From a virus (Duplodnaviria > Heunggongvirae > Uroviricota > Caudoviricetes), in the IMG/VR virus record IMGVR_UViG_2534682161_000021, positions 1 through 23,803 of that record: a DNA stretch of 23,803 nt. The stretch is one strand, 5' to 3'. Position 1 is the first letter of the stretch. The number at the start of each line of letters is the position of its first letter. Both the position numbers and the translations under genes were made by a program. Under the pieces are notes generated by a model. That model ran no database searches. It was not told the origin of the DNA and saw nothing but the letters and a program-made list of their open reading frames with translations. Of this stretch, positions 19,693 through 22,164 are shown piece by piece.

Positions 19693-22164
19693 ATGAGTAA
19701 AGTCTTTATTTGCGCCGCCATTCCGGACGAACAGGCAATAAAGGAAGAAGGTGCAGTCGCTGTAGCCACTGCCATTGAAGCCGGCGACGAACGTCGCGCC
19801 CGAGCCAAATTTACCTGGCAATTCCTGGAGCAATATCCGGCTGCTCAGGACTGCGCTTATAAATTTCTTGTCTGCGAGGATAAACCCGGCATGCCCCGCC
19901 CTGCCATCGACTCCTGGGATACCGAATATATGCTGGAAAACCGCTGGGATGAGGAAGGCGCTTCCTTTGTCCCGGTCGAACCAGAATCCGATCCGATGAA
20001 CGTCAATTTTGACAAGCTGTCCCCTGAAGTACAGAACGCGGTCCTGGTTAAGTTCGACACATGTGAAAACATCACCGTTGATATGGTTATTAGCGCACAG
20101 GAATTGTTGCAGGAAGACATGGCAACATTCGACGGACATATCGTTGAAGCGTTGATGAAAATGCCAGAAGTTAACGCCATGTATCCGGAGCTTAAGTTGC
20201 ACGCCATTGGGTGGGTTAAGCATAAATGTATTCCTGGTGCTAAATGGCCCGAAATTCAGGCAGAGATGCGCATCTGGAAAAAACGTCGCGAAGGTGAACG
20301 CAAGGAAACCGGAAAATACACGTCTGTTGTTGATCTCGCCCGCGCCAGAGCCAATCAACAGTACACTGACAATTCAACAGGAAAAATCAGCCCGGTCATT
20401 GCTGCCACTCATCGCGAATACAAGCAGACATGGAAAACACTGGATGACGAACTGGCCTACGCTCTCTGGCCTGGTGATGTGGATGCCGGAAACATTGACG
20501 GCAGCATCCATCGCTGGGCAAAAAATGAAGTTATCGACAACGACCGCGAAGACTGGAAGCGTATCTCGGCATCAATGCGCAAACAGCCTGATGCCCTTCG
20601 CTACGACCGCCAGACTATTTTTGGCCTTGTCCGTGAACGTCCGATCGACATTCACAAAGACCCTGTGACACTGAACAAATACATTACTGAATACCTGACT
20701 ACAAAGGGCGTGTTTGAAGATGAAGGAAGAAATCAGAGCGCAACTGATACTCTCTCGTCGCCAGTACCAGAAACTGATGCAGTGGAAACGGCAATTCCGG
20801 ACAACGAAAAAACCGAATGCAAAGTGGAAGTCGAACCATCTGTAGAGCGTGAGGGGCCGTTCTACTTCCTCTTCACCGACAAGGATGGCGAAAAATATGG
20901 TCGCGCAAACAAACTTTCTGGTCTGAATAAGGCGCTGACTGCAGGGGCTACTGAAATCACGAAAGAAGAATATTTTGCCCGTAAAAACGGTACATACTCA
21001 GGTTCACAACAAAATACTGGTGCATCTGACACGACCGCACAACCAGAGCCGGTAAAAGTTACCGCTGACGAAGTAAACAAAATTATGCAGGCAGCCAATA
21101 TCAGCCAGCCTGACGCCGATAAGTTGCTTGCTGTATCACGTGGTGAATTTGTTGCAGGGATTAGCGACCCGAATGATCCGAAATGGGTGAAGGGGATTGA
21201 AACCCGCGATTCAGTGAATCAGAACCAGCAAGAAACGGAACAGAACGACCAGAAAGCAGAACAAAACAGCCCAAATGCGTTACAAAACGAGCCAGAAACG
21301 AAACAACCTGAGCCAGTAGCGCAACAGGAAGCGGAAAAAGTCTGCACCGCATGCGGTCAGACCGGCGGCGGCAACTGCCCTGATTGTGGTGCGGTGATGG
21401 GCGACGCAACATACCAAGAAACATTCGATGAAGAGAATCAGGTTGAAGTTCAGGAAAATGATCCGGAGGAAATGGAAGGCGCTGAACATCCACACAAGGA
21501 GAATGCTGGCAGCGCTCAGGACCACGCCAGCAATAATGAAACTGGCGAGACGGCAGATCCCTTAATTGCGGTGAACGGTCATCACGTTATCACATCCACC
21601 AGCAGGACGTGTGACCATCTAATGATCGACCTTGAAACCATGGGAAAAAATCCTGATGCCCCGATTATCTCAATAGGTGCAATATTTTTCGATCCGCAAA
21701 CCGGAGATATGGGACCGGAATTTAGTAAGACTATCGATCTGGAAACTGCTGGCGGAGTCATTGATCGGGACACCATTAAATGGTGGCTTAAGCAATCACG
21801 CGAAGCGCAATCTGCCATTATGACCGATGAAATCCCGTTAGATGATGCACTGTTACAATTGCGGGAATTTATCGACGAAAACTCCGGTGAATTTTTTGTT
21901 CAGGTCTGGGGAAATGGAGCCAACTTCGACAACACGATTTTGCGCCGTTCATACGAACGGCAGGGGATCCCCTGCCCGTGGCGTTACTACAACGATCGCG
22001 ATGTACGCACAATCGTTGAGCTGGGGAAAGCCATAGACTTCGATGCCAGAACGGCTATTCCATTCGAAGGTGAGCGCCATAATGCACTTGATGACGCCCG
22101 TTACCAGGCAAAATACGTTTCAGTTATCTGGCAAAAACTGATCCCGAGTCAGGCTGATTCTTAA
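19693..22164 (+). CDS. RecE-like (exonuclease VIII-like) protein with C-terminal DEDDh 3'-5' exonuclease domain
   Basis: Central segment [29 protein letters not shown] matches recalled RecE; Cys4 knuckle [16 protein letters not shown]; C-terminus has DnaQ-like motifs [19 protein letters not shown] and [11 protein letters not shown]. Confidence 0.8.
   Translation: [823 protein letters not shown]

Follow-up and report, generated by a model that had tools for sequence, protein, structure and literature searches.

The Rac prophage nuclease RecE (exonuclease VIII), together with RecT, is a workhorse of recombineering; the N-terminal two-thirds of RecE is of unknown function, and this part of the protein boosts linear-linear recombination (PMC11611040). 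Exonucleases of the opposite polarity have been characterized from phage T4 and E. coli: DexA and EcD are both DNA 3'-5' exonucleases, EcD cleaves DNA containing 5hmC and confers protection against T4, and K-12 is without DexA homologs (PMC12153337). Defence against MS2 and Qbeta is provided by prophage-borne DEDDh exonucleases that also carry auxiliary domains; these TONDO nucleases are described as distinct from other defence-associated DEDDh domains (PMC13344964). In lambdoid phages, the main text of Zheng, Casjens et al. 2025 (PMC12315714) describes DnaQ-type nuclease genes near int, as well as a class designated 'no Rec module, Chi-rich' that relies on host RecBCD/RecA.

The window (the whole 23,803-nt stretch of prophage DNA that was analysed) contains the complete operon from repressor to int, in which the following features were identified:

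17004..17648, + strand: prophage repressor of S24/LexA type, the first gene of the early-left operon (HTH_3 and Peptidase_S24; RefSeq 'LexA family protein')
18984..19035, + strand: DicF sRNA, in the same early-left operon (Rfam RF00039, 76.7 bits)
19224..19412, + strand: dicB (PF05358, E = 1.5e-38; RefSeq annotation)
19409..19612, + strand: ydfD (DUF1482; PF07358, E = 5.6e-23)
19693..22164, + strand: exonuclease gene, 823 aa, intact ortholog of K-12 Qin ydfE (ORF list; RefSeq; phrog_2082)
22237..22488, + strand: excisionase, directly downstream of the exonuclease gene, where RecT sits in Rac (PF06806, E = 1.6e-31)
22508..23803, + strand: integrase, the intact counterpart of IntQ (PF00589 and PF12167)

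Between repressor and int there are only DUF1391, one 129-aa ORF (no Pfam match), DicF, DicB, YdfD, the exonuclease, and xis. The integrase adjoins rspB in the matching genome. IS21 pseudogenes are also present next to the lysis genes of the prophage. The dicF, dicB, and ydfD neighbors named in a first-pass annotation of this DNA were recovered by Rfam and Pfam matches, and its description of the K-12 Qin region as degraded proved accurate: K-12 ydfE corresponds to aa 1-256 of the 823-aa protein (93% identity), is cut by IS2, and is followed by IS2E/insD7 and then by the intQ pseudogene.

The ORF at 19693-22164 is intact, exactly as that annotation had it (823 aa, + strand), and is preceded by GAGG 10 nt 5' of the ATG. 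Its product is 100% identical to WP_000048570.1 (RefSeq 'exonuclease') and is spanned over its full length by phrog_2082. NCBI names relatives '3'-5' exoribonuclease', and the phage records PhiR42_1, Tritos, and vB_EcoS-640R1 label genes of this type 'exodeoxyribonuclease VIII'. The gene had been taken for an intact version of a poorly characterized enzyme; it is indeed intact and little studied with respect to function (we found no paper testing the function of the long, 823-aa form, and nothing relevant in the literature linking Rv2179c with prophages or ydfE with exonuclease), but it is ubiquitous and already catalogued by PHROGs and newer Pfam releases, and hence less novel than was thought.

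Within the gene, the following regions were delimited:

19693..20367, + strand: YdfE-type N-terminal domain, alpha/beta plus helical, aa 1-225
20425..20712, + strand: second ordered helical domain, aa ~245-340, with weak similarity to RecE aa 278-350 (AF2, RecE alignment)
21117..21566, + strand: segment with DNA homology to K-12 recE, aa 475-625, with a mosaic junction at its end (blastn)
21118..21192, + strand: conserved motif, aa 476-500, common to RecE aa ~456-480 (comparison of relatives)
21190..21612, + strand: acidic E/Q/N-rich linker, aa 500-640, predicted disordered (composition, AF2)
21343..21387, + strand: Cys4 knuckle, C551/C554/C562/C565, also in RecE (RecE alignment; weak Pfam zinc-ribbon match)
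21616..22131, + strand: DexA/Rv2179c-family DEDDh 3'-5' exonuclease domain, aa 642-813 (PF16473, T4 DexA alignment)

The C-terminal domain, aa 642-813, belongs by Pfam scan to PF16473 ('Rv2179c-like 3'-5' exoribonuclease'), with a score of 226.5 bits (E = 2.4e-67; gathering cutoff 27 bits) and profile positions 2-177 of 177 covered. The catalytic residues D646/E648/D746/H796/D801 of the three Exo motifs all fall in invariant alignment columns with T4 DexA D7/E9/D119/H186/D191, the T4 DexA structure 8KEL matches the domain (E = 1.5e-6), and aa 580-819 match phrog_255, the group to which T4 DexA belongs. The same scan found no match to any PD-(D/E)xK family in the 823-aa protein, in agreement with the proposal that this nuclease is missing from the C-terminus. 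The E-values for the domain and homology matches of this protein are far beyond chance. The earlier description of the C-terminus as a DnaQ/RNase T-like DEDDh domain is thus sound with regard to DEDDh, but the closest characterized relatives are the DNA exonucleases T4 DexA and E. coli EcD, not RNase T or DnaQ themselves.

The family name, taken from Rv2179c, and the NCBI label on relatives would suit an RNA-directed 3'-5' exoribonuclease, Rv2179c-like or TONDO-like, that trims RNA 3' ends and so either processes phage or host transcripts (e.g., of the dicF operon) or blocks ssRNA phages. The MS2 and Qbeta defence by prophage-borne DEDDh exonucleases with auxiliary domains (PMC13344964) points the same way, as do the top PDB fold matches for the nuclease model, which were RNase T, 3'hExo, and Orn (oligoribonuclease). 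However, the model of aa 370-823 is of low confidence (pLDDT 55, with long disordered stretches and a shallow alignment), and these fold matches agree with the Pfam call, as opposed to constituting independent proof of it. Given that the nearest characterized relatives from phage and E. coli act on DNA, that the scaffold is common to the dsDNA exonuclease RecE, and that TONDO was picked from <500-aa hits to an ISG20-like clade distinct from other defence DEDDh domains, we regard an RNA-directed role as improbable.

DexA membership raises a different alternative, namely a prophage-borne anti-phage nuclease of the HREX type, which would selectively destroy the modified (5hmC-type) DNA of T-even phages upon superinfection and in which the long N-terminal part would act as a sensor or regulator. 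PF16473 and the phrog_255 match are in common with DexA, and the gene is prophage-borne and extremely widespread; further, the same study that reported EcD cleavage of 5hmC DNA and protection against T4 found DexA homologs to be absent from K-12, consistent with the truncation of ydfE, and its homolog list contains WP_0000483xx accessions numerically close to WP_000048570 (PMC12153337). The specificity residues may count against this proposal: DexA Trp152 (5hmC recognition) aligns with Tyr766, and DexA Asp169 aligns with a Phe that has Asp on either side (the 'IDFDA' loop, where the alignment is uncertain). The DexA tetramer residue Asp90, which is Ala in EcD, aligns with Asp718, with Ala719 adjacent (a one-residue shift is possible); DexA S87 aligns with Pro. 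In addition, EcD is a small stand-alone protein with other termini, and PADLOC returned only a weak generic Cas-associated DEDDh match. The gene lies 3' of toxic dicB; no expression in the lysogen is expected, because the operon is repressed and no promoter of its own was found. An HREX-type defence role therefore appears unlikely, albeit less so than action on RNA.

The regions upstream of the nuclease relate the protein to RecE. The first-pass annotation had inferred a RecE-like scaffold, which is upheld for aa ~262-625, where the protein aligns with K-12 RecE 278-591 (BLASTP, E = 1e-63) and where NCBIfam NF007259 (RecE) matches only aa 238-626, equivalent to model positions 261-603 of 877. 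It does not extend to the first ~260 aa, which are YdfE-type and constitute an N-terminal type distinct from the PF06630 domain of RecE. K-12 RecE has PF06630 at aa 2-178 (E = 6e-98) and the PD-(D/E)xK domain PF12684 at aa 615-850 (Pfam), and neither is present in the 823-aa protein. There is practically no prospect that this is an ordinary RecE (exonuclease VIII), as the phage-record labels and the partial NF007259 match might imply: the NF007259 score of 285.7 bits fails the curated equivalog cutoff of 1269, and PF12684, PF06630, and a RecT partner are all missing. The domain scans refute that identity.

A structure search with the N-terminal fold found no informative structural relative. 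The helical domain at aa ~245-340 is well ordered (AF2 pLDDT ~87-95) and conserved (dN/dS 0.18). Downstream of it, the ~25-aa motif appears near-invariant and common to RecE, which is a new observation; its core is kept in 20 of the 49 full-size relatives of the scaffold, which have otherwise diverged strongly. The linker noted previously as long, acidic, and Q/E/N-rich has a net charge of -22 over aa 500-640 and AF2 pLDDT <50 over most of its length. The Cys4 knuckle that had been recognized ahead of the nuclease is also present, and is optional in the family, because only five of the 49 scaffold relatives have one. At the DNA level, the gene is 78% identical to K-12 recE over 450 nt (blastn), with 80-93% identity per 60-nt bin except for one indel bin, and past gene nt 1874 blastn found no similarity to K-12 recE. 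The DNA homology to recE ends just before each nuclease domain, which constitutes a mosaic junction.

The complete protein, searched against the 90%-clustered protein database, gave 7,928 matches, the best 120 of which are all at least 91% identical and consist only of near-identical E. coli copies. As these matches were uninformative on diversity, the scaffold alone was searched against a 50%-clustered representative library. Judged from the domain content of the relatives, the family combines two N-terminal types with at least three C-terminal types in a mosaic manner, a pattern newly recognized here: a YdfE-type or RecE-type (PF06630) N-terminus occurs with a DEDDh, PD-(D/E)xK, or third-type C-terminus. 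The RecE-type N-terminus with DEDDh was found in 13 of 83 related loci, and relative P0128 joins aa 1-470 of K-12 RecE (100% identity over aa 1-260, 91% over aa 261-470) to a DEDDh domain 99% identical to that of the 823-aa protein. The third-type C-terminus, present in ten relatives, has no Pfam match; these relatives probably correspond to the 'RecE-2' proteins in the main text of PMC12315714.

Relatives with a PD-(D/E)xK head are followed immediately by RecT (PF03837), which accompanies only those heads, a correlation that is likewise new. The initial observation that no RecT/Bet-like gene is nearby can be generalized: no homolog of RecT, Bet, Erf, lambda Exo, Gam, Abc, or NinB was found in any of 84 related loci, across which the order dicB-ydfD-exo-xis-int is fixed. 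In the window, Pfam and RefSeq annotation revealed no strand-annealing or anti-RecBCD gene in the early-left operon, nor an SSB gene in RefSeq annotation or general Pfam scans. Chi sites (GCTGGTGG) number 11 in the 23.8-kb window versus 0.64 expected, a count reached by no shuffle, and lambda and P22 have none. The window fits the 'no Rec module, Chi-rich' lambdoid class as set out in the main text of PMC12315714, and the Chi argument for RecBCD use is correlative.

Of 5,426 complete E. coli genomes, 3,533 carry the gene at near-full length (often several copies per genome), as do the isolated lambdoid phages mEp460, Tritos, HannyBb, and Evi. The K-12 pseudogene, the IS21 pseudogenes near the lysis genes, and the markedly shorter length (437-709 aa) of nine of 83 related genes could be taken to indicate a decaying prophage remnant that has no current function and merely hitch-hikes. 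Purifying selection nevertheless acts on every region of the gene (dN/dS 0.06-0.36 among the 83 related genes, 0.06 in the nuclease domain), 46 of the 83 copies have a length of exactly 823 aa, the catalytic residues are all preserved, and isolated, plaque-forming lambdoid phages carry the gene; the remnant explanation is very improbable and already largely refuted.

Overall, we consider it somewhat better than an even chance that this Qin-type lambdoid prophage carries a gene for a functional multi-domain 3'-to-5' exonuclease that acts independently of an annealase and arose by modular exchange within the RecE family; an early-operon, annealase-independent 3'-5' DNA exonuclease is the most likely activity. 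In its layout, a YdfE-type body (aa 1-340) leads into a long acidic disordered tether, which carries two elements also present in RecE (a conserved motif of putative docking type, and a zinc knuckle that is optional in the family), and then into the DexA/Rv2179c-family DEDDh nuclease in the place of the PD-(D/E)xK 5'-3' nuclease of RecE. The gene appears to be co-transcribed with dicF-dicB-ydfD-xis-int from the repressor-controlled early-left operon, and the exonuclease would therefore be made on induction or infection and not in the quiescent lysogen. No promoter-like or convincing terminator-like site was seen between ydfD and the exonuclease gene (weak consensus scan), and promoter and terminator scans around the gene gave nothing above background, which hints weakly at expression only from pL. 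Two-metal hydrolysis from free 3' ends is expected, most probably of DNA, because the characterized relatives DexA and EcD act on DNA, and would need neither an annealing protein of its own nor an inhibitor of RecBCD. The scaffold may deliver the nuclease to DNA ends, a conjecture given that structural comparison of the N-terminal fold was uninformative, and the nuclease would trim 3' tails, either making the ends usable by RecBCD or destroying linear host or competitor DNA. Several points count against an annealase-independent DNA exonuclease: according to the main text of PMC12315714, 3'-5' exonucleases usually inhibit homologous recombination, and int-proximal DnaQ-type nucleases are not counted as Rec-module proteins. 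The Pfam/NCBI family name 'exoribonuclease', after Rv2179c, is a further such point.

The same middle and tether occur on nucleases of opposite polarity, with RecT only beside the 5'-3' head, which suggests that the job of the scaffold is separate from polarity and from annealase loading. More speculatively, and with about the same low likelihood as we give to HREX-type defence, the non-catalytic part of the RecE family could be a general nuclease-delivery platform that recruits interchangeable heads of opposite polarity (PD-(D/E)xK 5'-3', DEDDh 3'-5', and the third type) to the same partner or DNA structure via the docking motif on the acidic tether. Such a platform would explain the purpose of the N-terminal ~590 residues of RecE, and the DEDDh version would represent an annealase-independent end-processing pathway by which Chi-rich lambdoid phages gain access to host RecBCD/RecA; the short near-invariant motif is the obvious place to seek a partner. 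If the protein is simply a housekeeping nuclease of the lytic cycle, the outcome would be only a useful correction of annotation (not RecE, and not necessarily an RNase). The DEDDh form is among the commonest E. coli prophage genes (about two-thirds of complete genomes), and its absence in intact form from K-12 may explain why it has been little studied. It bears on two recent proposals: RecBCD-dependent, Chi-rich lambdoid phages, and the involvement of DexA-family nucleases in phage-versus-phage or host defence.

Among known systems, Rv2179c (the M. tuberculosis 3'-5' exoribonuclease on which PF16473 was founded) is linked to the 823-aa protein at family level by HMM, and is a small, stand-alone actinobacterial RNase. 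TONDO (ISG20-like; PMC13344964) likewise combines a DEDDh nuclease with an unrelated auxiliary domain on prophages or plasmids, but belongs to another DEDDh clade according to that paper's description, with candidates drawn from hits of <500 aa. The int-proximal nucleases of PMC12315714 are presented in its main text without the RecE-scaffold fusion, the head-swap pattern, or the RecT correlation. EcD/'HREX' (HAK9828821.1) is an E. coli DexA-family 3'-5' exonuclease that, like the 823-aa gene, is not intact in K-12; it is small and stand-alone (starting MIDTET and ending TIPETYD according to primers, and run on a Superdex 75 column), its termini differ from those of the 823-aa protein, and specificity residues are not clearly shared, EcD being known here from published primers and residues only. 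T4 DexA (exonuclease A; PDB 8KEL/8KEN) has PF16473 and PHROG 255 in common with the nuclease domain at 27% identity; it is a 227-aa stand-alone enzyme, encoded by a virulent phage, that has additional loops and switches between dimer and tetramer, whereas in the 823-aa protein the domain forms the C-terminal head. The helical middle domain, Cys4 knuckle, acidic tether, and near-invariant motif recur in RecE of Rac, which occupies the same early-left position adjoining xis/int. The two proteins differ in the N-terminal 260 aa (PF06630 in RecE, YdfE-type here) and in the head, which is PD-(D/E)xK (5'-3') with RecT downstream in RecE, and DEDDh (3'-5') without RecT in the 823-aa protein.

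The open reading frame at 19693-22164 (+) was recovered with exactly the bounds of the first-pass annotation in the ORF list of the window (823 codons), with GAGG 10 nt 5' of the ATG; its product is here called the exonuclease. The C-terminus was described as a DEDDh domain in place of the PD-(D/E)xK nuclease of RecE, and Pfam bears this out: PF16473 (Rv2179c-like 3'-5' exonuclease) is complete at aa 642-813 (E=2.4e-67, 226.5 bits vs a cutoff of 27), and the scan gave no match to a PD-(D/E)xK family. T4 exonuclease A (DexA; 8KEL/8KEN) is the sole solved structure reached from the exonuclease by sequence search, and alignment with full-length DexA shows that all five catalytic residues are kept, D646, E648, D746, H796, and D801, corresponding to D7, E9, D119, H186, and D191 of DexA (PMC12153337). 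The Cys4 knuckle (C551/C554/C562/C565) and the acidic tether that precede this domain are also present, the latter comprising 141 E/Q/N-rich residues with a net charge of -22. PHROG 2082 spans the protein end to end, and three families are assigned to it in newer Pfam releases (PF27430, PF16473, and PF27432). The molecular identity of the exonuclease is secure, and DNA is a more likely substrate than RNA.

From 31 diverse sequences, AlphaFold2 modelled aa 1-380 with confidence (mean pLDDT 83): aa 1-225 form an alpha/beta-plus-helical domain and aa ~245-340 a helical one, after which the chain is disordered. For aa 370-823, confidence is low (pLDDT 55); order is limited to small elements and to the DEDDh domain, which is folded and follows a disordered tether, and the top PDB matches of that domain are RNase T, 3'hExo, and Orn.

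The central segment was correctly likened to RecE: aa 262-625 align with aa 278-591 of K-12 RecE (BLASTP, E=1e-63), near-identically over the final ~150 residues. Compared as DNA, the exonuclease gene and recE share a single block of 450 nt (aa 475-625; 80-93% identity per 60-nt bin, one indel bin excepted), which ends at the tether/nuclease border, with no similarity to recE past it. This end of homology is a classic mosaic junction, and the reading that stands is that a head swap at the tether gave a RecE-family scaffold its DEDDh head. K-12 RecE carries PF06630 (aa 2-178) and the PF12684 PD-(D/E)xK domain (aa 615-850), neither of which was found by Pfam in the exonuclease. Only aa 238-626 match the NCBIfam RecE equivalog (model positions 261-603 of 877), and the score, 285.7 bits vs a cutoff of 1269, indicates that the exonuclease is not a RecE; an ordinary RecE is ruled out by this sub-cutoff score and the absence of PD-(D/E)xK.

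A search with the scaffold (aa 1-640, nuclease left out) against 1.84 billion cluster representatives matched only 254 clusters at E<=0.001, so the family is narrow. When the relatives were probed with individual domains by local BLAST, all combinations of N-terminus (YdfE-N, or RecE-N = PF06630) and C-terminus came up.

Combinations of termini in the scaffold family (P numbers, cluster-representative relatives)
YdfE-N + DEDDh: exonuclease of the window, P0122
RecE-N + DEDDh: P0128, P0138 (E. albertii), P0250 (Kluyvera)
RecE-N + PD-(D/E)xK: RecE, P0257, P0258
YdfE-N + PD-(D/E)xK: P0130, P0193, P0220
YdfE-N + C-terminus without a Pfam match: P0125 and others

In P0128, the first 470 residues of K-12 RecE (identity 100% for aa 1-260 and 91% for aa 261-470) are followed by a DEDDh domain that shares 99% identity with that of the window. 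RecE-N + DEDDh hybrids account for 13 genes among the related loci examined.

The type of head is linked to the presence of RecT, the annealing partner of RecE in Rac. Across 84 loci (the window, 80 IMG/VR prophage loci, and three annotated records), tblastn found no homologue of RecT, lambda Bet/Exo/Gam, or P22 Erf/Abc1/Abc2/NinB within ~8 kb of the gene (0/84), which extends the initial observation that no RecT/Bet-like gene is nearby; the 13 hybrids likewise lack RecT. A RecT-family gene lies directly 3' of the PD-(D/E)xK-headed relatives in K-12 Rac and in two relatives' loci, L090 and L091 (PF03837, E=1e-39 and 9e-30). In three further loci, the ~300-aa C-terminus of the YdfE-N relative has no Pfam match; proteins of this type, P0125 among them, probably correspond to the nuclease-less 'RecE-2' proteins described in PMC12315714.

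YdfE-N relatives with a C-terminus lacking a Pfam match
L092, 6001-8370: Sipho_Gp157 gene next (8484-8930), in RecT's stead
L094, 5983-8328: Sipho_Gp157 gene next (8298-8888), in RecT's stead
L093, 6001-8109: integrase directly after

The loci keep one gene order: repressor, DUF1391, variable small genes, dicB (76 loci), ydfD (76), exonuclease (83), xis, and int. The neighbours named at first sight were confirmed in the window by Rfam (DicF) and Pfam (DicB and YdfD, with excisionase and integrase). A scan of the window gave no promoter-like or convincing terminator-like site between ydfD and the exonuclease gene, which appears to be a working gene, expressed with the early-left operon. The sole early-left ORF without a family (18082-18471 (+), 129 aa; no Pfam or PADLOC match) sits between DUF1391 and DicF, in the slot that varies.

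The gene was also rightly taken for the intact version of a K-12 Qin wreck: the pseudogene ydfE corresponds to aa 1-256 (93% identity) and is followed by IS2E/insD7 and an intQ pseudogene beside rspB. In L001, a genome record matching the window at 100%, an intact copy together with xis and int occupies this rspB/ynfA site. Compared with up to 38 divergent 823-aa alleles, the gene has Nei-Gojobori dN/dS values of 0.19 (aa 1-230), 0.18 (aa 245-345), 0.36 (aa 346-470), and 0.32 (aa 471-640); the value for the DEDDh domain (0.06) comes from few substitutions because loci were chosen on that domain. The reading that stands is of a putative DEDDh 3'-5' exonuclease, intact and under selection, that would act independently of an annealase on a RecE-family scaffold.

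A motif of ~25 residues, [KR]xLAAxRGE[FY]..., is near-invariant in 20 of 49 full-size scaffold relatives, including RecE; the Cys4 knuckle occurs in only five of the 49.

21118-21192: conserved motif, aa 476-500 (K-12 RecE aa ~456-480)

These relatives are divergent. Because the region is otherwise variable and largely disordered, the motif is a candidate for docking a partner.

Several other features of the window were recorded.

~1-1783 (L001 127-2091): IS21 istB/istA pseudogenes with frameshifts, immediately past the lysis cassette, at the expected place of late genes
3671-4756 (-): type II DNA methyltransferase (PADLOC MTase_II, E=6.5e-152), no restriction gene annotated alongside
7281-8330 (-): DUF968 protein, neighbour of RusA in the nin-type region; nuclease-like HNHc_6 match below threshold (24.3 bits vs a cutoff of 26.6)
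9220-9394 (-): sok antitoxin RNA (RF01794, 108 bits), adjoining a truncated hok/gef annotated in L001
11587-12285 (+): zeta-toxin family ORF (PF06414, E=7e-29)
12305-12937 (+): 210-aa ORF after it, no Pfam or PADLOC match

The prophage is probably truncated in this strain, its early-left operon nonetheless intact. The zeta-toxin and 210-aa ORFs may form a toxin-antitoxin or defence moron, since the prophage genes around them are on the other strand.

By megablast, the gene is in 4,800 of 5,426 complete E. coli genomes (median two places per genome), with >=80% covered at one place in 3,533. Isolated lambdoid phages (mEp460, Tritos, HannyBb, Evi, and PhiR42_1) and PPompW prophages also carry it. 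The identical protein (UniProt A0A2A6QE79) is on 166 contigs; clustered at 90%, it falls in a group of 23,183 members. E. coli copies are annotated 'exonuclease' or '3'-5' exoribonuclease domain-containing protein', and phage and prophage copies are at times mislabelled 'exodeoxyribonuclease VIII'. The description 'poorly characterised' holds for substrate and role, which we infer only, but the gene itself has catalogue entries and has been noticed in part in the literature. Its existence is not new; new are the recognition of its architecture, the mosaic of termini across the family, the association of RecT with the type of head, and the conserved motif.

DnaQ-like 3'-5' nucleases occur in lambdoid Rec modules (Zheng, Casjens, Davidson, Amundsen, Smith 2025, PMC12315714). 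Sporadic DnaQ-type nuclease genes 'very near int' are mentioned as well, but excluded by those authors from Rec-module proteins. The same study finds 22% of lambdoid phages to be Chi-rich, without a Rec module, and dependent on RecBCD. The window fits this class, with a total of 11 Chi octamers (GCTGGTGG; 4 on +, 7 on -) vs 0.64 expected from shuffles, and lambda and P22 have none; 18 kb of adjoining host flank has 4.

Chi positions in the window
1709, 2163, 4872, 5188, 7640, 7692, 9656, 11302, 11798, 16414, 21596

The role of the exonuclease would probably lie in end processing in RecBCD-dependent, Chi-rich lambdoid phages, with defence as the alternative. EcD, a small stand-alone E. coli DexA homologue characterised alongside DexA, cuts only 5hmC DNA and protects against T4 (PMC12153337). 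The DexA specificity residues are not clearly kept in the exonuclease (W152 = Y766; D169 in an ambiguous loop). Table S3 of that study lists WP_000048320/327/333/363/384 among 'bacterial DexA homologues'; these accessions are numerically near WP_000048570 of the exonuclease, so that list may have taken long forms fused to the scaffold for simple DexA homologues. ISG20-like DEDDh nucleases with auxiliary domains defend against RNA phages (PMC13344964), but they belong to a different clade from the exonuclease, and that study picked its candidates among hits shorter than 500 aa.
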